Shown here: piece by piece, positions 1,301 to 21,429 of the stretch | Numbering within the stretch: position 1 is the first letter of the stretch | Layout of the letters: every line of letters starts with the position of its first letter | Source of the DNA: Methylorubrum extorquens | GTDB taxonomy: Bacteria > Pseudomonadota > Alphaproteobacteria > Rhizobiales > Beijerinckiaceae | Assembly (NCBI GenBank): GCA_900234795.1 | Contig: LT962688.1 | Coordinates: forward strand, 3,270,001-3,302,000 | DNA length: 32,000 bases | Direction: 5' to 3' | Notes under the pieces: model-generated | What the model was told of the DNA's origin: nothing | The model's input: the letters and a program-made list of their open reading frames with translations, nothing else | Databases searched by the model: none | Translations under genes and position numbers: made by a program

Positions 1301-2824
1301 ATGCATGAGCCGGTGAAATCCCCCCAAGCCTCGCATCGGCTGCTCACCGTTGAGGCGATGCGCCGGGTTGATGCCGCCGCGATCGCCGGCGGCACGCCGG
1401 GCCTGACGCTGATGGAGGCGGCGGGCGCCGCCGTCGCCGCGCATGCCCGCGCCATGGCACCGGAGCGTGGCCGGGTGCTCGTGCTGTGCGGCCCCGGCAA
1501 CAATGGCGGCGACGGGTTCGTGGCCGCCCGCCTGCTGAATGAGTCCGGCTACCACGTCGATCTGCGTCTGCTCGGCGAGCGCGCCGCGCTCAAGGGCGAT
1601 GCCGCCCTCGCCGCCGAGGCCTGGACCGGCCCGGTGGGTACCGTGGAGGCCGCGATTCCGGCGGCCGACCTCATCATCGATGCCGTGTTCGGCGCCGGCC
1701 TCTGCCGCGATCTGGAAGGGGCAGCCCGTACCCTCGTGGAAGCGGTGAACCGCTCGGGCATCCCCGTGCTGGCCGTGGATGTGCCGAGCGGCATCGACGG
1801 CGATAGCGGCGCGGTGCGCGGGCTCGCGGTCGAGGCGACCGAGACGGTGACCTTCGTCGCGCCGAAGCCCGGCCACCTGCTCGAGCCCGGCCGGACCCAT
1901 TGCGGCGTACTGCATGTCGCCGATATCGGCACGGGCGAGGCCGCTTTCGCCGCCGGGGTCGCCGGAGAGACCCGCGCGCTGTATCGCAACGCGCCCGGCC
2001 TGTGGGCGCTGCCGCGGCTCACCGCCGGCAGCCACAAATACACCCGCGGCCATGCCCTGGTGTTGTCGGGCCCCGCCTATCGCACTGGCGCGGCCCGGCT
2101 CGCTGCCCGCGGCGCGCTGCGGGTCGGTGCGGGGCTCGTCACCATGGCTTCACCCGCCTCGGCGCTGGCGGAGAACGCCGCCCAGCTCACCGCGATCATG
2201 CTGCGCCCGTGCGAGAATGCCGACGACCTCGATGACATGCTCGCCGACGAGCGGCTGAACGCGCTGCTGCTCGGCCCCGGCCTCGGGACCGGCCCGGCGA
2301 CCTGCGACCTCGTCGCGGTGGCGGCCAATGCCGGGCGCGCCCTGGTGCTCGACGCCGACGCGCTCACGAGCTTCCGCAGCGAGGTGCGCACCCTCGCCCG
2401 CCACATCCGCGACGGCGAGGCACGGGCCGTGCTCACCCCGCACGAGGGAGAGTTCACGCGGCTGTTCTCCGGCACGGAGGCCGTGGCGGAGGGGCTGACG
2501 AAGGTCGAGCGGGCCGCGCGGGCGGCGGAGATCGCCGGGGCGGTCGTGGTGCTGAAGGGCGCCGACACGGTGATCGCGGCCCCGGACGGGCGCGCGGCGA
2601 TCAACGACCACGGCACGCCGCATCTCGGCACCGCCGGCTCCGGCGACGTGCTCGGCGGCCTCGTCGCCGGGTTGCTGGCGCAGGGCATGGACCCGTTCGA
2701 CGCCGCCTGCGCCGCCGTGTGGCTGCACGGCGATGCGGGCCTGCGCTTCGGGCCGGGGCTGATCTCCGAGGATCTGCCGGAGATGGTTCCGGCGGTTCTG
2801 CGCGACCTCGCCGGTCGCGCCTGA
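1301..2824 (+). CDS. nnr: bifunctional NAD(P)H-hydrate repair enzyme (YjeF N-terminal epimerase + C-terminal ADP-dependent dehydratase)
   Basis: 507-aa ORF. The N-terminal half has VLVLCGPGNNGGDGFVAARLL (YjeF_N). The C-terminal half has HKYTRGHALVLSG..GSGDVLGG (carbohydrate-kinase-like dehydratase). Confidence 0.9.
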   Translation: MHEPVKSPQASHRLLTVEAMRRVDAAAIAGGTPGLTLMEAAGAAVAAHARAMAPERGRVLVLCGPGNNGGDGFVAARLLNESGYHVDLRLLGERAALKGDAALAAEAWTGPVGTVEAAIPAADLIIDAVFGAGLCRDLEGAARTLVEAVNRSGIPVLAVDVPSGIDGDSGAVRGLAVEATETVTFVAPKPGHLLEPGRTHCGVLHVADIGTGEAAFAAGVAGETRALYRNAPGLWALPRLTAGSHKYTRGHALVLSGPAYRTGAARLAARGALRVGAGLVTMASPASALAENAAQLTAIMLRPCENADDLDDMLADERLNALLLGPGLGTGPATCDLVAVAANAGRALVLDADALTSFRSEVRTLARHIRDGEARAVLTPHEGEFTRLFSGTEAVAEGLTKVERAARAAEIAGAVVVLKGADTVIAAPDGRAAINDHGTPHLGTAGSGDVLGGLVAGLLAQGMDPFDAACAAVWLHGDAGLRFGPGLISEDLPEMVPAVLRDLAGRA

Positions 2825-2834
2825 CCCGCTCCCG

Positions 2835-4238
2835 CTATCCGGCTGCGACCGAAGCGTTCTTCCGGCCATAAAGCGCGTAGAACACCAATCCGAGGACGTT
2901 CCAGACGGCGAACCAGAGTTGGGTCTTCGCGGGCAGGCTGAAGAACAGATAGCCGCAGCCCAAAATCGTGATCGCCCCGATGAGCCACGGGGCCGGGGCG
3001 CGGAAGGTGCGGGGAGCATCCGGCGCACGGGCGCGCATCACCAGCATGCAGGCCGCGACGGCAATGAACGCCGCGAGCGTCCCGGCATTGGCGAGTGCAG
3101 CGAGCTCCCCCAGCGGGACGAGCCCGGCGAGCACGGTCACCACGGCCGCCGTGAAGAGGGTGATCCGAACCGGCGTTCCGGCGGAGGAGAGTTTCGCCAG
3201 GCTCTGCGGCAGCATCCCGTCGCGGGCCATGGTGAAGAAGATCCGGCTCTGGCCGTAGAAAAAGGCGAGGATGACGGTGGGCAACGCGATCACCGCCGAG
3301 GCCGCGAGATACTGCGCCACCAGCGGCCGGCCGAGTTCGCGCAGGATCAGCGCCAGCGGCTCCGGACTGTCGGCAAAGCGCGTGTAGGACAGGGCCCCCA
3401 CCGCGGTGACCGCGACCGCAACGTAGATCACGACGCAGGCCGCCATCGATCCGACGATGCCGATGATCAGGTCGCGCCCTGGGTTGCGCGTCTCCTCCGC
3501 CGCGGTGGCGATGGCGTCGAAGCCGTAGAAGGCGAAGAAGATGATCGCCGCCGCCGCCATGATGCCGCGCTCGACCCCGTCGGCGCCCAGGCTCTTCACG
3601 AAGCCGAACGGGTTGAACGGTTCAAGATGGGCGGCGTCGAAGGCGGGCACCGCGAAGACCACGAAGACGATCAACGCGGCGATCTTCACCAGCACCAGCG
3701 CGGCATTGACTGTGGCGCTCTCCCGCGTGCCGCGCAGGAGCAGCACGGCGACGACGACGATGATCGCGACCGCGGGGAGGTTGACGATCCCGCCCGCATC
3801 CGGCCCCCGCATCAGCGCCCTGGGGAACCCGAACAGGTTCTCCAGCAGCGGCGCGGCATAGCCGGACCAGCCGACCGCCACCGCGCTGACGACGAGCGAG
3901 TATTCGAGTATCAGGCTCCAGCCGATGACCCAGGCGAGGATCTCGCCGAGCACGACATAGGTGTAGGTATAGGCGCTGCCCGAGACCGGGATCATCGTCG
4001 CCATTTCGGCATAGGCGAGCGCTGCGCAGGCGCAGATCGCGCCGGCAATGGCGAAGGACAGGATCACGGCGGGCCCGGCCTTGGCCGCCCCGACGCCGAT
4101 GAGCGTGAGGATGCCGGTTCCGACGATCGCGCCGACACCGAGGGCCATGAGATGCGGCCAGCCGAGCGTTCGTGCCAGCCGACGCTCTTCACCGGGCTCC
4201 AGTTGCAAGGGCTTACGGCGAAGAAGGCTGGACGTCAT
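2835..4238 (-). CDS. APC-family amino acid permease
   Basis: Polytopic membrane ORF with GVGAIVGTGILTLIG..FAIAGAICACAALAYAEMATMIPVSGSAYTY. I chose the start at ATG 4238 (MTSSLLRRK) because AGGAG lies 5 nt upstream. The track's longer start at 4292 has no such site. Confidence 0.85.
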   Translation of the reverse strand: MTSSLLRRKPLQLEPGEERRLARTLGWPHLMALGVGAIVGTGILTLIGVGAAKAGPAVILSFAIAGAICACAALAYAEMATMIPVSGSAYTYTYVVLGEILAWVIGWSLILEYSLVVSAVAVGWSGYAAPLLENLFGFPRALMRGPDAGGIVNLPAVAIIVVVAVLLLRGTRESATVNAALVLVKIAALIVFVVFAVPAFDAAHLEPFNPFGFVKSLGADGVERGIMAAAAIIFFAFYGFDAIATAAEETRNPGRDLIIGIVGSMAACVVIYVAVAVTAVGALSYTRFADSPEPLALILRELGRPLVAQYLAASAVIALPTVILAFFYGQSRIFFTMARDGMLPQSLAKLSSAGTPVRITLFTAAVVTVLAGLVPLGELAALANAGTLAAFIAVAACMLVMRARAPDAPRTFRAPAPWLIGAITILGCGYLFFSLPAKTQLWFAVWNVLGLVFYALYGRKNASVAAG

Positions 4239-6287: not shown

Positions 6288-7355
6288 TCAGGCGTCGATC
6301 TTCGGGTCGAGCGAGCCGTTGGCGTAGCGCTTCGCCATCTCGGCCACCGAGATCGGGCGGATCTTCGAGCCCTGACCGGCGGTGTTGAACTCCTCGAAGC
6401 GCTGGCGGCACAGCTTGGTCATCGCCTCCATGGCGGGCTTCAGGTACTTGCGCGGATCGAACTCGGAGGGGTTCTCGGTCAGCACCTTACGGATCTGACC
6501 GGTCATCGCCATGCGGTTGTCGGTGTCGATGTTGATCTTGCGCACGCCATGCTTGATGCCGCGCTGGATCTCTTCGACCGGCACGCCCCAAGTCGGCTTC
6601 ATCTCGCCGCCGTACTGGTTGATGATGTCCTGAAGGTCCTGCGGCACCGAGGAGGAGCCGTGCATGACGAGGTGAGTCGTCGGCAGGCGGCGGTGGATCT
6701 CCTCGATCACGCCCATGGCGAGCACGTCGCCGTCGGGCTTGCGCGTGAACTTGTAGGCGCCGTGGCTGGTGCCCATGGCCACCGCCAGCGCATCGACCTT
6801 GGTGGCGGTCACGAACTTCACCGCCTCGTCCGGATCGGTCAGGAGCTGGTCGTGGGAGAGCACGCCTTCCGCGCCGTGGCCGTCCTCGGCCTCGCCCTGG
6901 CCGCTCTCCAGCGAGCCGAGCACGCCGAGTTCGCCCTCGACCGAGACGCCGGCCCAGTGGGCCATCTTGGTGACGTTGCGGGTGATCTCGACGTTGTAAT
7001 TGTAGTCCGCCGGGGTCTTGCCGTCGGCTTTCAGCGAACCGTCCATCATCACCGAGGTGAAGCCGTACTGGATCGCGGTGGCACAGGTGGCTTCGTTGTT
7101 GCCGTGGTCGAGATGCATGCAGACGGGGATGTGCGGGTAGATCTCGACGAGGCCGTCGATGAGCTTGGCCAGCACCACGTCGTTGGCATAGGCGCGGGCA
7201 CCCCGGCTCGCCTGGAGGATCACCGGCGAGTCGGTGGCATCCGCCGCCGCCATGATGGCGAGCCCCTGCTCCATGTTGTTCAGGTTGAACGCGGGCACGC
7301 CGTAGCCGTACTCGGCGGCGTGATCGAGGAGCTGCCGGAGGGTGATGCGTGCCAT
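6288..7355 (-). CDS. fba: class II fructose-bisphosphate aldolase
   Basis: [44 protein letters not shown].. is class II FBA. ATG 7355 is preceded by GAGGA. The track's 712-aa ORF is an artefactual N-terminal extension that runs across pgk. Confidence 0.95.
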
Positions 7356-7507
7356 GGTTCGATCCTCGTGCGATGCGGCCTCAGCCGGGCCTGTCCCTTG
7401 CTGCGGCCTATATAGGTGAGCCAGTGCCGCCAGCCTGCGGCCCGGCGCTGAAAAATGCGCGCGTTTGTCGCCACCGCCGCCCGCGTTGCGGTGCGGCCGA
7501 TCCGGCC

Positions 7508-8710
7508 TCAGCCCTGCGCGCGCAGCGCCTCGACGCCGGGCAGTTCCTTGCCCTCCAGCCATTCGAGGAAGGCGCCGCCCGCGGTGGAGACGTAGGAGAA
7601 GTCCTCGCCCACGCCCGCATGGTTGAGGGCCGCCACCGTGTCGCCGCCGCCGGCGACGCTGACGAGCTGGCCGGCCTTGGTCCGCCGGGCGGCATGCTGG
7701 GCGACCGCGACCGTGCCGGTGTCGAACGGCGTCAGCTCGAAGGCGCCGAGCGGGCCGTTCCAGACCAGCGTCCGGGCTTCCTCGATGGCGCCGTCGATCG
7801 TGGCGATCGAGGAGGCGCCGACATCGAGGATCATCGCGTCGGAGGGCACGGCATCGACCGGAACGGTCTCGTTCTCGGCATTGGCCTTGAACTCGCGGGC
7901 CACCAGCGCATCGACCGGTAGGATGATGGTGCAGTTCTTCTCCTTGGCCGCGGCGAGGATGCGCTTGGCGGTCTCGGCGAGATCCTTCTCGCAGAGCGAC
8001 TTGCCGACATCCTTGCCCTGCGCGTGCAGGAAGGTGTTGGCCATGCCGCCGCCGATCACCAGCATGTCGACCTTGGCGACGAGGTTTTCGAGCAGGTCGA
8101 TCTTGGTCGAGACCTTGGCGCCGCCGACGATGGCGATGACCGGGCGGGCCGGAGCCTCGAGACCCTTGGTCAGGGCATCGAGTTCGGCCTGCATCAGGCG
8201 GCCGGCATAGGCCGGCAGCAGGCGGGCGAGCGCTTCGGTCGAGGCGTGCGCACGGTGGGCGGCGGAGAACGCCTCGTTGACGTAGATGTCGCCATTGGCA
8301 GCCAGCGCCTTGGCGAAGTCGGGATCGTTCTTCTCCTCGCCCGCGTGGTAGCGGGTGTTTTCGAGGAGGATCACGTCGCCGTCCTTGAGCGCCGCAACGG
8401 CTGAAGCAGCGGCCTCGCCGACGCAATCCTCACCGAACGCCACCGGCCGCCCGAGCTTCTCCGACAGCGTCGAGAGGATGGGCTTGAGCGAGTCCTTCGG
8501 GTCCGGCTTGCCCTTGGGGCGGCCGAAATGCGCCAGCAGGATCACCCGCCCGCCCGCATCGGCGATCTCGCGGATCGTCGGCACGACGCGCTCGATCCGG
8601 GTCGCGTCGGTGACGCGTCCGCCCTCCATCGGCACGTTGAGATCGACGCGCAGCAGCACGCGCTTGCCCTGGAGCGGGCCGGCATCGTCGAGGGTGCGGA
8701 AATCCGTCAT
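7508..8710 (-). CDS. pgk: phosphoglycerate kinase
   Basis: 400-aa ORF with [18 protein letters not shown] and [14 protein letters not shown] motifs. Confidence 0.97.
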
Positions 8711-9426: not shown

Positions 9427-10434
9427 TCAGATCAGCTTGGCCATGGCCACGGCGGTGTCGGCCATGCGGTTCGAGAAGCCCCACTCGTTGTCGTACCAGG
9501 ACAGGATGCGCACAAAGGTGCCGTCCATGACCTTGGTCTGGTCGAGGTGGAAGGTGGACGAGTGCGGATCGTGGTTGAAGTCGATCGACACGTTCGGCCG
9601 GTCGGTGACGCCGAGCACGCCCTTGAGCGGGCCGGCGGCGGCCGCCTTGATCGCGTCGTTGATCTCCTGGACCGAGGTCGCGCGCTTGGCCGTGAACACG
9701 AGATCGACCGCCGAGACGTTCGGGGTCGGCACGCGGATCGCGGTGCCGTCGAGCTTGCCCTTCAGCTCCGGCAGGACGAGGCCGACGGCCTTGGCCGCGC
9801 CGGTCGAGGTCGGGATCATCGAGAGCGCCGCGGCGCGGGCCCGATAGAGATCCTTGTGCATCTGGTCGAGCGACGGCTGGTCGTTGGTGTAGGAGTGGAT
9901 CGTGGTCATGAAACCGCGCTCGATCCCCACCGTGTCGTTCAGCACCTGTGCCACCGGCGCAAGGCAGTTCGTGGTGCAGGAGGCGTTGGACACGACGAGG
10001 TGCTCGCCCGTGAGCTTGTCGTGGTTCACGCCGTACACGACCGTGAGGTCGGCGCCGTCGGCGGGCGCCGAGACGAGCACGCGCTTGGCGCCGGCGTCGA
10101 GATGGGCCTTCGCCTTGTCCTTCGAGGTGAAGATGCCGGTGCATTCCAGCGCGATGTCGACACCGAGCTCGCGGTGCGGCAGCTCGGCCGGGTTGCGCAC
10201 GGCGGTGACGCGGATGCGCTTGCCGTTGATGACGATGTCGTCGCCCTCGACCGCGACCTCGGCCGGGAAGCGGCCATGGACGGAATCGTAGCGCAGCAGG
10301 TGGGCGTTGGTCTCGACCGGGCCGAGATCGTTGATCGCGACGACCTCGATATCGGTGCGGCCGGCTTCGACGATGGCGCGCAGCACGTTACGGCCGATGC
10401 GCCCAAACCCGTTGATGGCAACCTTGACGGTCAC
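9427..10434 (-). CDS. gap: type I glyceraldehyde-3-phosphate dehydrogenase
   Basis: [41 protein letters not shown] start at 10434 with AAGGAG 7 nt upstream. The track's 513-aa ORF is an upstream extension. Confidence 0.95.
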
Positions 10435-10896
10435 GGCGTGACTCCTTCGAAATGGGGCGCACCCGCGCGCCGATGGAACAACGGTCGGGCCAGCCGGCGG
10501 CTTTCGCGCGCGGTGCCCGATGAAGGTGAGACCGCTCCAAGCGGGGCGGGACTGAACGGGGGATGAACCGTGAGGCGGCCCGCAGACGTCCGGTCGGCGG
10601 ACGGTCTGATCGGGGAGCCGGAGAAAGTCACGGTCTTGAGAATCCGTAGGGCGGCCCCGCGCCGGGGGATCGGGGCCGGGCGCCGGCTCTCTAACATGGC
10701 GCCCGAGGCTGTCAAAGATCGGGGGCAAGCCTGTGAATTGTCTGGAATTTCGAATGCGCTTGGCTGAAACCTGTCCGCAGCGAGGGTTCGGAGTACCGCG
10801 AAAGTCCTTCCGCCGCCGGCCGTTTGCGTTCTGGCCGTCGCGGCGCGGGACGCGTTTCGTGGCCGACTCTGATGGGACGGCAACCGACGGGTAGAT

Positions 10897-11217
10897 ATGG
10901 CGCGAGCGGATACGAAGGCAGCGCAGGGCAGAAGGCAGGACGGCGTCGGGCTGGAAGAGGCGCTGCACCGGCTCGACACGGCGCTGGCGCTGCTCGAGAC
11001 GGCGGTGGCCCGCAAGCTCGAAGCCGAGCGCAGCCGCGGCGATCGGGAGACGGAGTTCGCCCTGCTGGAGGAGGACCGGGTTCGGCTCGCCGCCGAACTC
11101 GATGCGGCGGGCGCGCGGCTCGCCCGGATGAATTCCACCACCGGCGAGGTCAACCGCCGCCTCGATCGCGCCATCGAGACGGTGGAAGACGTGCTGTCCG
11201 GCCCGTCCGGGCGCTGA
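10897..11217 (+). CDS. DUF4164-family coiled-coil protein
   Basis: 106-aa coiled-coil ORF directly upstream of zapA, the usual position of DUF4164 in alphaproteobacteria. Recognised by context and composition. Confidence 0.7.
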
Positions 11218-11650: not shown

Positions 11651-11848
11651 ATTTCTGAGGCATGACGCGATCGCCCCCTGGCGCCGGGACGCGAGCGCGT
11701 CTATCTCTGGCGGGCGGGGCTGCAGAGTTCGTCAGGAGAACTTTCCCCGGGGCCTTATCGACTCCCCAAGGAGCTGTCACTGGCCTCGTCCGTGGACTTG
11801 GCCAACACGGCGCCCACCTACACTGTAGGTTTCCCGGGATCGACACTC
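11651..11848 (+). ncRNA. ssrS: probable 6S RNA (boundaries approximate, +/- 20 nt)
   Basis: A 247-nt non-coding gap between zapA and the 5-formyl-THF cyclo-ligase gene is the conserved proteobacterial ssrS location. The segment starts AUUUCUGAGG... like E. coli 6S and contains several stems, for example AGAGUUC-GUCAGGA-GAACUUU, GGGG..CCCC, and CCGGGA (11684-9) pairing with UCCCGG (11832-7). I could not fold it rigorously. Confidence 0.5.
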
Positions 11849-11859
11849 CAACGGCTCAA

Positions 11860-12450
11860 GTGGCTCCGCACTCTTCTCCCGAACGCTCCCTGAAGGCGAG
11901 CCTCCGCGCCGAGGCACTCAGCCGCCGCGACGCGCTCTCGCCCGAGGCCCGCAAGGCCGGCTCGCTGCGCGCCGCCGAGACCATCGCGGCCATTCCCGAG
12001 CTGGCCGAGGCGCCGCTGGTCGGCGCCTTCTGGCCGATCCGCTCCGAGATCGACCCGCGCCCGCTGATCGAGCGCCTGTTCGCCCGCGGCCAGCGGGTCG
12101 CGCTGCCGAAGGTCACCAAGCAAGGCCTCGTCTTCCGCGAATGGCGCGCGGGCGAGGAACTGGTGAGCGGCGGCTTCGGCCTCAGCGAGCCCCGCGACGA
12201 CCTTCCGCCGCTCGACCCCACCGCCCTGATCGTGCCGCTCGCCGCCTTCGACCGCGCGGGCCAGCGCATCGGCTACGGCGCGGGCTATTACGATCAGGCG
12301 ATCGAGCGGCTCTCGAAGAACGGGCCGGTGCTGACCGTCGGCATCGCCTTCTCCGTGCAGGAGATCGCGCGCGTCCCGGCCGAGCCGCATGACCGCCCGC
12401 TCGACCATCTCGTGACCGAGACCGGCCCCGTGCCGCTCCGGCAAAGCTAG
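11860..12450 (+). CDS. 5-formyltetrahydrofolate cyclo-ligase
   Basis: SLKASLRAEALSRRDAL..VGAFWPIRSEIDP..VALPKV..GLSEP..IVPLAAFDRAGQRIGYGAGYYD are family motifs. I chose GTG 11860 as the start, giving 196 aa, so that the ORF does not run across the putative 6S RNA. Confidence 0.85.
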   Translation: MAPHSSPERSLKASLRAEALSRRDALSPEARKAGSLRAAETIAAIPELAEAPLVGAFWPIRSEIDPRPLIERLFARGQRVALPKVTKQGLVFREWRAGEELVSGGFGLSEPRDDLPPLDPTALIVPLAAFDRAGQRIGYGAGYYDQAIERLSKNGPVLTVGIAFSVQEIARVPAEPHDRPLDHLVTETGPVPLRQS

Positions 12451-20111: not shown

Positions 20112-20645
20112 TCACTCTCCGCCGAACGCGGCGCGCAGACGGCCGAACTGGGCGGTCACCGGGCTTTCCCGCGGCACCGGGGCGGGACGATCCTCGCTGA
20201 TGAGCGCATCGAGGTGGAGGATGCGCGAGTGAAGCCGGCGCGAACGGCGCACGAGATCCTGAAGCCGCAGCGGCAGGGTGGTGAAGGCATCGCCGGCCTC
20301 GGGCAACGCGCGCTCCGGCTCGGCGAGCTTGACGCGGGTCTTCTCCTCCTGCGCCTGAACCAGCGAGATCTCACCCTCGGAGACGGCGCGCTGCACCAGC
20401 AGCCATGAGGCGATCTGCATCAGCCGGGTCGTGAGGCGCATGCTCTCGCTGGCATAGGCGAGCGTGGCATCGCGGGAGATCAGCCGCGATTCGGAGCGCC
20501 CTTCCCCATCGAGATAGGCCGCCGTCTCCTCGACCAGCAGCATCCCCTCGCGGAACAGGGTCTTGAAGCCTTCCGAGGTCACGTAGGACTGGCCGAAGCT
20601 CACCCACTCGCGATCGTCCCGGAACGTCACGTCGAACTCGGTCAT
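20112..20645 (-). CDS. DUF1465 family protein (RcdA-like regulator of CtrA degradation)
   Basis: MTEFDVTF..VSFGQSYVTSEGFKTLFREGMLLVEETAAYLDG..ASESMRLTTRLMQIASWLL is the DUF1465 pattern. ATG 20645 is preceded by GGAGG. Confidence 0.8.
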   Translation of the reverse strand: MTEFDVTFRDDREWVSFGQSYVTSEGFKTLFREGMLLVEETAAYLDGEGRSESRLISRDATLAYASESMRLTTRLMQIASWLLVQRAVSEGEISLVQAQEEKTRVKLAEPERALPEAGDAFTTLPLRLQDLVRRSRRLHSRILHLDALISEDRPAPVPRESPVTAQFGRLRAAFGGE

Positions 20646-20819
20646 CCTGCCTCCTGTACCGCCAGCGAACCATCTGCCCCGGATCGGGACGATGCCGGTG
20701 CGAATGCGGCCAGTGGGGCAAGTGTAGCGCCGAACGCGAGCCGAAAGGAGGTTCACGTCTTTTTAACGTTAACGGCCCCAGCCGGCATCAGGCCCGAAGC
20801 GCCGCGCGCGGAGAGAGGC

Positions 20820-20851
20820 AAAAAAAGAAGCCGCCCCAGGAGGAGCGGCTT
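20820..20851 (-). terminator. strong intrinsic terminator on the minus strand
   Basis: The minus strand reads AAGCCGCUCC-UCCU-GGGGCGGCUU, a 10-bp stem with one G.U pair, followed by C and UUUUUUU. On the plus strand the same stem has a C.A mismatch and no U tract, so the orientation is minus. Confidence 0.75.
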
Positions 20852-20928
20852 TCGTGAGTCTTACAGGGAGGCATCAAGCAGACTGGAAAGAGATCCCAAT
20901 CAGGATCCAGACAATCTGGATGTGCCTC
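20820..20928 (-). ncRNA. candidate small RNA (about 100 nt, 5' end uncertain) ending at the intrinsic terminator
   Basis: A locally AT-rich island in a roughly 70% GC genome. There is no credible ORF: the only one, 20788..21033, reads through the terminator. Contains hairpin AUCCAGA-UUG-UCUGGAU (20905-20921), possible pairing of GAGGCA with UGCCUC, a GCCUCCCUG stretch and a CUCCUCCU terminator loop. Confidence 0.4.
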
Positions 20929-20944
20929 TTCGTAGAACGGAAAG

Positions 20945-20960
20945 GTTAACGCTCCGTTAA
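20945..20960 (-). promoter_or_regulatory. perfect CtrA-box consensus TTAA-N7-TTAAC
   Basis: The minus strand reads TTAACGGAGCGTTAAC. TTAA is very rare in this window. The box sits just upstream of the sRNA candidate. One reading makes the first half-site a -35 element, with TTCTAC 17 nt downstream. Confidence 0.45.
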
Positions 20961-21132
20961 GGGCCGGGCCGGCGCGGCGGGAATCGTCGGCACAGGCCCG
21001 TGAAGACCCAAGCCGGGACGCGCGCGATCGCAACAGAGCGGTCCGATAGCCACCGCCACCCGCCGCATCGGTCGCGGAATCGCTCGAAGCGGCGCACCGG
21101 CGACCGGGGCTGTCATGAGTTGGGCGCCGTCA

Positions 21133-21161
21133 TTGACTTGCAGCGCCCCCTCCGCCATAAG
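21133..21161 (+). promoter_or_regulatory. candidate sigma-70 promoter for rpmH-rnpA-yidC
   Basis: TTGACT-N17-CATAAG, about 135 nt upstream of the rpmH ATG. Pattern match only. Confidence 0.3.
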
Positions 21162-21294
21162 CCGCGCCATTGCGAAGCGGCGCCCCGTTCCGGGCGCCCT
21201 TCGCGTTTGCAGATCCCATTTCGAGGCTTACGCACGGTCCGCGCGCTCATCGGCAGCGCCGCCGGGCCGATACCTCGGCCGCCGGAGACCGACC

Positions 21295-21429
21295 ATGAAG
21301 AGAACCTATCAGCCCAGCAAGCTCGTTCGGAAGCGCCGCCACGGCTTCCGCGCCCGCATGGCCACCGCCGGCGGCCGCAAGGTCATCGCGGCCCGCCGCG
21401 CGCACGGCCGCAAGCGCCTCTCGGCCTGA
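21295..21429 (+). CDS. rpmH: 50S ribosomal protein L34
   Basis: [49 protein letters not shown] lies 6 nt upstream. It is embedded in a longer artefactual track ORF. Confidence 0.97.

Follow-up and report, generated by a model that had tools for sequence, protein, structure and literature searches.

A small RNA gene of the BjrC1505 family with a predicted CtrA-type promoter beside the rcdA-like gene of Methylorubrum extorquens

The DNA analysed here (the window) is a 32,000-nucleotide (nt) stretch of Methylorubrum extorquens (contig LT962688.1, positions 3,270,001 to 3,302,000), and the element in question lies on its minus strand at 20820-20967. A DUF1465 (RcdA-family) gene lies downstream on the same strand and rpmH-rnpA-yidC diverge upstream. 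A preliminary description, made from the letters alone, had placed a discrete minus-strand small RNA (sRNA) gene here, and all the features it described are present, with coordinates right to within 2 nt. The terminator scan confirmed the intrinsic terminator in which that gene was proposed to end (10-bp stem, UCCU loop, U7), and the analysis as a whole supports such a gene. The AT-richer stretch said to carry no credible open reading frame (ORF) is also real: G+C is 0.47 at 20850-20949 against ~0.70 on both sides, the only ORF overlapping the sRNA region matches no protein family, and no ORF conservation was found among relatives of the sRNA. A small-peptide reading was rejected, as start codons, frames and lengths vary and the ATG in GATG occurs in only 27/67 sequences. 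Folding of 150 nt gave z = -4.47, with 0/200 shuffles folding equally well. Judged by this score and by the Rfam E value below, the signal of the region is well beyond chance.

In a scan of the whole window, the element matched Rfam RF02356 (BjrC1505) over its full length (20821-20967, minus strand, model positions 1-140), with 68.7 bits against a gathering threshold of 50 and E = 4.5e-11. By this match the sRNA is the Methylorubrum/Methylobacterium copy of the known family BjrC1505 / SmelC671 / sm84 / ReC71. The preliminary description had left the RNA unassigned and proposed this very search; with a model above its curated threshold and orthologues already published, the RNA is not novel, its orthologues having been described in 2008-2012 as sm84, SmelC671, ReC71 and BjrC1505. 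In Sinorhizobium meliloti, sm84 was predicted in the SMc03988/SMc03989 intergenic region and gave a ~80-nt Northern band (PMC2573895), and SmelC671 was found by RNA sequencing (RNA-seq) as a 100-nt trans-encoded sRNA at 2986421-2986520 (PMC2873474 supplement). SMc03989 is RcdA in that species. ReC71 was described in Rhizobium etli, with relatives in Bradyrhizobiaceae and Methylobacteriaceae that show extensive microsynteny (Reinkensmeier 2011, PMC3927594), and Northern blotting detected BjrC1505 in M. extorquens (bioRxiv 10.1101/2022.01.24.477521). A 2020 review leaves the promoter type of the family RNA blank, and neither BjrC1505 nor its promoter sequence was found in the differential RNA-seq supplements for Bradyrhizobium japonicum.

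The families suggested in the preliminary description were not borne out. MmgR/alpha-r8 (Rfam RF00519 suhB) reached 24.7 bits against a gathering threshold of 41, with only the seed and terminator aligning, and a sensitive Rfam scan of 20600-21300 gave no match at E <= 1 for AbcR (alpha-r15) or NfeR1 (alpha-r14). SorY and other Rfam families were far under threshold in the Rfam scan. GspR, an S. meliloti sRNA controlling ctrA, is unrelated; it lies at another locus and is restricted to Sinorhizobium.

The features of the sRNA gene are as follows, with the hairpins numbered as stem-loops (SL) from the 5′ end:

20960-20945, minus strand: CtrA box TTAACGGAGCGTTAAC (TTAA-N7-TTAAC), the putative activator site, with its 5′ T at about -38/-39
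20934-20929, minus strand: -10-like element TACGAA (family consensus TATnAA), from the anchored information profile
upstream of the transcript, minus strand, in the order 5′ to 3′: CCC, the CtrA box, then CTTTCCGTTC, TACGAA and GAGGCAC, followed by SL1
20928-20923, minus strand: GAGGCA
20921-20820, minus strand: predicted sRNA transcript of ~100 nt, putative start at A20921 (+/-1), 3′ end in the U tract
20921-20905, minus strand: SL1, a perfect 7-bp hairpin AUCCAGA-UUG-UCUGGAU = AUCCAGAUUGUCUGGAU
20901-20881, minus strand: SL2, hairpin GAUUGG...CCAGUC = GAUUGGGAUCUCUUUCCAGUC, separated from SL1 by CCU
20877-20860, minus strand: SL3, a weak stem = UUGAUGCCUCCCUGUAAG, preceded by UGC, its loop showing CCUCCC at 20871-20866
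20873-20868, minus strand: UGCCUC
20872-20864, minus strand: first pyrimidine motif GCCUCCCUG
between SL3 and the terminator stem, minus strand: ACUCACGA
20851-20820, minus strand: intrinsic terminator (terminator scan), stem AAGCCGCUCC/GGGGCGGCUU at 20851-20828 with 10 bp, 7 of them G-C, loop UCCU, then C + U7 to 20820
20845-20838, minus strand: second pyrimidine motif CUCCUCCU, in and around the terminator loop

The locus was compared with ~190 related loci in all, for which 80 genomic loci were fetched using the DUF1465 protein alone as query and 120 metagenomic loci were selected by a 24-nt seed-region pattern alone. A core covariance model was built from the RNA core only, without the promoter; on the window it scored 80.5 bits at 20821-20925. 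The nearest DUF1465 homologues are from Methylorubrum species (92-93% amino-acid identity). Among the protein-selected loci, the Rfam model found BjrC1505 in 17/20 sampled, always just upstream of the DUF1465 gene and co-oriented with it, and the core model matched 68/80, again always upstream and on the same strand. The reverse test gave the same association: a DUF1465 gene lay downstream on the same strand in 94/95 RNA-selected loci with enough downstream sequence. In S. meliloti the gene order matches that of the window locus, with rpmE and an ATP-binding cassette (ABC) transporter gene downstream. The 12 genomic loci without a core-model match comprise diverged RNA variants, true losses in some Methylobacterium, and loci with a different upstream neighbour.

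Two groups of Methylobacterium loci stand apart. In L020, L021, L022 and L015 (Methylobacterium spp., ~2500-3000) the DUF1465 gene is present and the sRNA is absent, with no seed motif and no T-run, which looks like a lineage-specific loss of the RNA; L020 and L022 keep the gene-proximal CtrA-like site described below. In L016, L018 and L019 (Methylobacterium goesingense group, ~2700-2840) the RNA is diverged, with a box of the form GTAAC-N6-GTTAAC, other hairpins, the seed GCUCCCGAC and a normal terminator, and the core model gives it only 13-19 bits.

Conservation and covariation of the stems, an analysis that the preliminary description had proposed, were examined in 67 relatives. A model of four hairpins was paired in 90.1% of cells, compared with 39-46% for slid controls, and compensatory changes were found in 12 pairs, a number reached by 0/500 shuffles. 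The perfect 7-bp hairpin noted earlier at 20905-20921 is SL1, which was paired in 97.8% of cells and has one pair that changes from A-U to G-C in 11 sequences. SL2 was paired in 98.5% of cells, with compensatory changes in 4/6 pairs and a U-G pair in the window where most relatives have G-C. The SL3 stem was paired in 81.1% of cells, and the terminator in 85.5%, with compensatory changes in 6 pairs. The long-range GAGGCA/UGCCUC helix once considered possible did not survive the comparison: both motifs exist, but 5/6 of its columns pair in just 27-52% of sequences, and its 5′ arm lies upstream of the predicted transcription start, in the promoter. Predicted transcripts of the family have a median length of 98 nt (range 91-105); the ~100 nt originally estimated fits better than the 140-nt Rfam model.

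An exposed part of this structure carries the proposed anti-Shine-Dalgarno (anti-SD) motif. CCUCCC, the putative seed, lies within the conserved block UUGAUGCCUCCCUGU, is exact in 55/67 relatives and has a mean unpaired probability of 0.87; CCTCCCTGT is nearly invariant. The first pyrimidine motif exists as described, at 20872-20864 and not at about 20866-20874, a shift of 2 nt. The second, in the terminator loop, is present in only 24/67 relatives.

Upstream of the RNA the conservation has a different character. The most invariant 5′ alignment columns are TTAA-N7-TTAA(C), with free bases between the half-sites. In the information profile the half-sites carry 1.4-2.0 bits and the spacer <=0.7 bits, and nothing upstream of the box is conserved. 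Beyond the box, after a gap of 11 nt, comes a TATnAA block at positions 26-31 from the box start (A27 1.28 bits, T28 0.9, A30 0.9), which is followed by ~7 low-information positions and then SL1. No TTGACA-like -35 hexamer was found 16-18 nt from this -10 element. A perfect TTAA-N7-TTAAC occurs once in the 32-kb window, where shuffles expect 0.00. The motif TTA[AG]-N7-TTA[AG] lies upstream of 63/69 matches to the box-free core model, mostly 33-36 nt before the model start. For the metagenomic loci a strict TTAAC under-called the box (54/115), and scoring was replaced by the palindromic core TTAA-N7-TTAA with a control region; on this scale the box reached at least 7/8 in 105/114 RNA-selected loci, compared with <=5/8 in control regions. 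The same profile of half-sites, spacer and -10 element was seen in this set as in the genomic one.

The 5′ part of the Rfam model was assessed in the same way. Its four 5′ helices (model ~1-45) were paired in 33.6-52.5% of cells in the 67 relatives, compared with 34-45% for slid controls and 85-98% for the downstream helices, and RNAalifold predicted no structure in the 5′ promoter segment. The first ~45 positions of RF02356 are, on this pattern of conservation and pairing, promoter DNA and not RNA. The failure of the 5′ helices holds for the whole family and so reflects a flaw of the Rfam model boundary, not evidence against membership.

As a matter of curation, RF02356 model positions ~1-45 (window 20925-20967, minus strand) fold ~45 nt of promoter, comprising the CtrA box and -10 element, into unsupported helices, which probably lowers the sensitivity of the model. 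Rhizobiaceae orthologues score low, with 27.2 bits for S. meliloti SmelC671 (L201 2155-2302, CP090106.1) and 31.7 for Shinella (L202 2150-2294), against the gathering score of 50. Rfam-based annotation therefore misses the family in Rhizobiaceae.

The transcription start was anchored in the S. meliloti orthologue. In CP090106.1 the locus reads box TTAACCGCAAATTAAG, 22 nt with a -10-like element, the start A followed by UCCGG..., UCUCCCUGU, the terminator, the second box TTAACCCTTTCTTAAG and rcdA. The 5′ end of SmelC671 was obtained from the 2010 RNA-seq coordinates and the published structure threaded onto the sequence; the 100-nt structure fits one register only, with 25/25 pairs, and this register begins at an A 38 nt downstream of the box's first T. 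This is the position that had been predicted beforehand from the -10-like element. Counted from the published RNA-seq 5′ end, the motif thus has its 5′ base at -38 in S. meliloti; for the window the -10-like element predicts -38/-39, with about A20921 as the most likely start of transcription. Activated promoters of Caulobacter that carry a full CtrA motif have its 5′ base near -35, and ctrA P2 has it at -39 (Zhou et al. 2015, PMC4287350). In the literature searched, nothing was found connecting CtrA with the BjrC1505/SmelC671 sRNA.

Two sequence records, CP090106.1 ('pSymB') and NZ_CP069303.1 ('unnamed1'), are labelled as plasmids of 3.7 and 4.6 Mb, carry chromosomal rpmE and rcdA, and look like mislabelled chromosomes.

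Three further features on the minus strand concern the adjacent gene:

20767-20751, minus strand: second CtrA-like box, GTTAAAAAGACGTGAAC, which departs from the consensus at one position on either strand and is assigned to the promoter of the DUF1465 gene
20657-20646, minus strand: ribosome-binding region ACAGGAGGCAGG of the DUF1465 mRNA, a speculative target of the sRNA seed
20645-20112, minus strand: DUF1465 (RcdA-family) gene, 177 aa, ATG at 20645 after AGGAGG, Pfam PF07323 with E = 1.7e-54

Homologues of the DUF1465 protein align from residue 1 of the ATG at 20645. Apart from the perfect box, which also matches on its opposite strand with one mismatch, no site in the window but the second box comes this close to the consensus. 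Across the loci, the second site agrees with at least 8/9 consensus positions in 51/69. Nearly all loci have it 87-120 nt ahead of the start codon, with 0-251 nt between it and the sRNA terminator. The stretch from terminator to start codon spans 97 to 361 nt, and the second site is kept even where the RNA is missing. Since the second site is fixed to the gene and not to the RNA, and persists without it, the locus is read as two tandem transcription units, not as a leader and its gene. In S. meliloti, start sites of rcdA mRNA map from 2986607 onwards, a position 34 nt past the second motif. The rcdA leader SmelC672, which starts at 2986608, is separate from SmelC671 (PMC2873474 supplement). 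Chromatin immunoprecipitation sequencing (ChIP-seq) there showed CtrA binding in the rcdA promoter region, with rcdA mRNA unchanged on CtrA depletion (PMC4433202). In agrobacteria, rcdA has several start sites, with CtrA sites further upstream than in Caulobacter (PMC10469942).

We consider it probable, at roughly 0.7, that the element is an independent ~100-nt sRNA gene of this family, driven by a CtrA-type promoter and acting in trans through anti-SD pairing. Family membership, structure, synteny, the discrete RNAs of ~100 nt in relatives and where the S. meliloti 5′ end falls relative to the box have been shown, here or in orthologues. On this basis, a full CtrA box would take the place of the -35 element, with TACGAA behind it, and transcription would begin at about A20921 and stop at the 20851-20820 terminator. 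SL3 would then present the near-invariant CCUCCC(UGU), which would most likely pair with the SD regions of target mRNAs and block translation initiation, as in other alpha-rhizobial anti-SD sRNAs. The U-rich tail of the terminator suggests help from Hfq. CtrA binding and activation, anti-SD action and the involvement of Hfq are what we infer from these features. As the promoter looks CtrA-activated, levels of the RNA would be expected to rise in the late cell cycle, during CtrA activity. The sRNA would thereby belong to the cell-cycle regulon, alongside the downstream DUF1465/RcdA-family gene with its own CtrA-like box.

Several observations weigh against this interpretation. The family has no validated target, the published prediction being acetolactate synthase, ilvIH. 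The stem of SL3, from which the seed would act, is almost without covariation, with double changes in 1/6 pairs (6 sequences). The start proposed for this genome derives from conservation and one orthologue. CtrA binding at the sRNA box is a prediction, and the S. meliloti ChIP-seq peak cannot separate two boxes ~175 bp apart, at about 2986384-2986399 and 2986558-2986573. Valverde et al. interpreted the promoter of sm84 as an ordinary sigma-70 one (PMC2573895). The box is degenerate in some lineages, with only one perfect half-site in 6/69 loci, and TTTA-N7-TTAAG variants are common in the metagenomic set. Finally, some Methylobacterium species lack the RNA, which is therefore dispensable in those lineages.

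An independent sRNA might instead have an ordinary constitutive or stress-controlled sigma-70 promoter, TTAA-N7-TTAA then being a -35-like element or the site of another protein. The annotation by Valverde et al., the detection of sm84/SmelC671 under many conditions, the unresponsive rcdA mRNA in S. meliloti despite ChIP binding, and the degenerate half-sites (TTTA, TTAG) of many lineages all agree with that view. We nevertheless regard it as unlikely, because the spacing is exactly 7 nt, the two half-sites are conserved around a free spacer, and no TTGACA-like hexamer stands 16-18 nt from the -10 element. Moreover, the predicted position is the one that CtrA-activated promoters of Caulobacter have (PMC4287350), a second copy of the motif precedes an adjacent gene of the CtrA-proteolysis pathway, and the region carries a CtrA ChIP-seq signal in S. 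meliloti (PMC4433202). The evidence on the upstream segment also speaks against a 140-nt RNA that starts before TTAA-N7-TTAAC and folds the box into a structured 5′ domain. The Rfam seed and consensus structure do include the box positions, the window aligns to all 140, and the preprint reports the M. extorquens Northern band without a size; but the 5′ helices pair in 34-52% of cells in the 67 sequences, equal to slid controls, RNAalifold predicts nothing in the 5′ segment, and conservation there takes the form of two half-sites with a free spacer. With an S. meliloti transcript of 100 nt that starts 38 nt past the box start, and a Northern band of ~80 nt, a 140-nt RNA is extremely improbable.

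The element might also act in cis, as a 5′ leader or attenuator of the DUF1465/rcdA-like gene; transcripts begun at the upstream CtrA box would then run on into the gene except where the terminator forms, with the short RNA a by-product. In favour of this, the RNA lies directly upstream of the gene on the same strand in essentially all loci. Kaistia- and Mesorhizobium-type loci, with gaps of 105-122 nt and no second CtrA-like site (5/9), are the most favourable to it, since read-through could there be the only CtrA input. However, the gap varies from 97 to 361 nt with the second CtrA-like site fixed to the gene and not to the RNA, the rcdA mRNA start sites of S. meliloti map separately, downstream of the sRNA terminator, and in several species the gene and its proximal box persist without the RNA or with another upstream neighbour. 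The terminator is also strong (10-bp stem, U7), and no conserved anti-terminator pairing was found, the sole proposed long-range helix not being conserved. Overall, a leader appears very unlikely. An RNA that mainly binds a protein or the ribosome, as a sponge or decoy with an SD-complementary loop, and does not act on mRNAs would suit the lack of any family member with a validated mRNA target, and also the sequences of SL1 and SL2 (TCCAG...CTGGA, GAGTGG...CCACTC), which are nearly invariant, more than structure needs. An exposed C/U-rich loop with a U-tailed terminator is, on the other hand, how base-pairing anti-SD sRNAs of this group are normally built (PMC7143759), and the seed co-varies with a candidate target site, which makes such a role improbable.

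That candidate site is the ribosome-binding site (RBS) of the adjacent gene. Pairing of the seed with the DUF1465 ribosome-binding region gave -17 to -21 kcal/mol in RNAduplex, and the rcdA-like RBS gave -17.2 kcal/mol against -14.5 for control initiation regions with the same GGAGG core, energies that are inflated by generic SD/anti-SD pairing, as any anti-SD loop pairs with any strong SD. Several distant lineages have 8-9 perfect seed-RBS pairs reaching beyond the SD, for example GGAGGCGUC with GACGCCUCC. Furthermore, the base that follows AGGC in the RBS tracks the sRNA variant: it is G in 67/79 loci with GACGCC (background 43%) and A in 12/19 with GAUGCC (background 10%). This association of sRNA C/U with mRNA G/A has p = 1.5e-8 in a 2x2 Fisher test, not corrected for phylogeny; the U/A state is limited to Methylobacteriaceae and may be a single evolutionary event. 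Compared with dinucleotide-shuffled leaders the seed signal was weak, with a median z of -0.72 and p <= 0.05 at 19% of loci, and rcdA targeting is for this reason treated as a lead only.

The lead can nevertheless be stated as a proposal, one we hold as possible and on balance doubtful: that BjrC1505/SmelC671 is a CtrA-activated cell-cycle sRNA across Hyphomicrobiales that directly targets the RBS of the adjacent rcdA-like mRNA. It is drawn from the tandem CtrA boxes, the 8-9 perfect seed-RBS pairs and the C/U-G/A co-variation. CtrA would turn on both genes, and the sRNA would restrain the synthesis of RcdA, the adaptor that promotes CtrA proteolysis. If true, this would form an incoherent feed-forward loop stabilising or timing CtrA, a functional counterpart of CcnA in Caulobacter, an RNA that is not known from Rhizobiales, and would explain why CtrA binds upstream of rcdA in S. 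meliloti without a response of rcdA mRNA to CtrA depletion.

Elsewhere in the window, the RNA scan found 6S RNA (SsrS, Rfam RF00013) at 11714-11870 on the plus strand, full length with 71.7 bits against a gathering threshold of 46.4, an ordinary housekeeping RNA. A c-di-GMP-II-GAG riboswitch match at 21057-21149 (minus strand), between the sRNA promoter and rpmH, scored 19.5 bits against 40 with E = 0.49; this aptamer was set aside as sub-threshold and most likely due to chance. The ORFs for fructose-bisphosphate aldolase (6288-8426, minus strand) and glyceraldehyde-3-phosphate dehydrogenase (9427-10968, minus strand) extend 180-360 codons upstream of their Pfam-matched parts, which is the usual over-extension of ORFs in high-G+C DNA; the true starts lie further in. 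The S. meliloti fba gene (FbaB SMc03983) is also near rcdA, a hint of wider regional synteny.

As an RNA, the element is an ordinary member of a known family and adds no new sRNA. What goes beyond the literature searched is the CtrA-type promoter in the conserved 5′ flank of the family, the corrected transcript boundary and a testable link to rcdA. The promoter would bring into the cell-cycle regulon an sRNA that is widespread (Rhizobiaceae, Bradyrhizobium-type, Methylobacteriaceae, Beijerinckiaceae and others). The strict pairing of the RNA with rcdA and the seed-RBS complementarity offer a cheap test of whether rhizobia and methylotrophs tune CtrA stability in this way. The rcdA gene is essential in S. 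meliloti, where control of CtrA matters for bacteroid differentiation.

The closest known systems are the family members themselves. BjrC1505, SmelC671, sm84 and ReC71 share with the window copy the hairpins, the CCUCCCUGU block and the terminator, as well as the position upstream of DUF1465/rcdA with rpmE and the ABC-transporter gene beyond; the window copy has U for C in GA(C/U)GCC and a longer SL2 loop, and there is no essential difference. MmgR/alpha-r8, AbcR1/2 and NfeR1 have in common with it a short CCUCCCU-type anti-SD motif that is left unpaired and has a strong terminator behind it, and the 3′ half of the window RNA aligns weakly to the MmgR model. These sRNAs differ from it in genomic context and in promoter type: MmgR is under NtrC and AniA, and NfeR1 has a sigma-70 promoter (PMC7143759). 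With the CtrA-activated promoters of Caulobacter, the sRNA promoter shares the TTAA-N7-TTAA motif, its 7-nt spacing and, by prediction, the position at about -38/-39. The Caulobacter regulon includes rcdA and six non-coding RNAs (PMC4287350), whereas CtrA binding and dependence at the sRNA promoter are predicted.

The CcnA sRNA of Caulobacter crescentus (PMC8959179), whose authors found no clear homologue in S. meliloti, resembles the BjrC1505 copy in several respects. Both have a CtrA-box promoter, both are proposed to pair a C-rich loop with a G-rich sequence at or near the RBS of cell-cycle mRNAs, and both have ties to the circuitry that determines CtrA levels. CcnA, however, is 182 nt long, lies at the replication origin and targets ctrA and gcrA, whereas the BjrC1505 copy is ~100 nt long and lies next to rcdA and rpmH. 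The genomic context also differs, being here rpmH, rnpA, yidC, rpmE and the rcdA-like gene; the likeness proposed between the two is one of functional analogy only.

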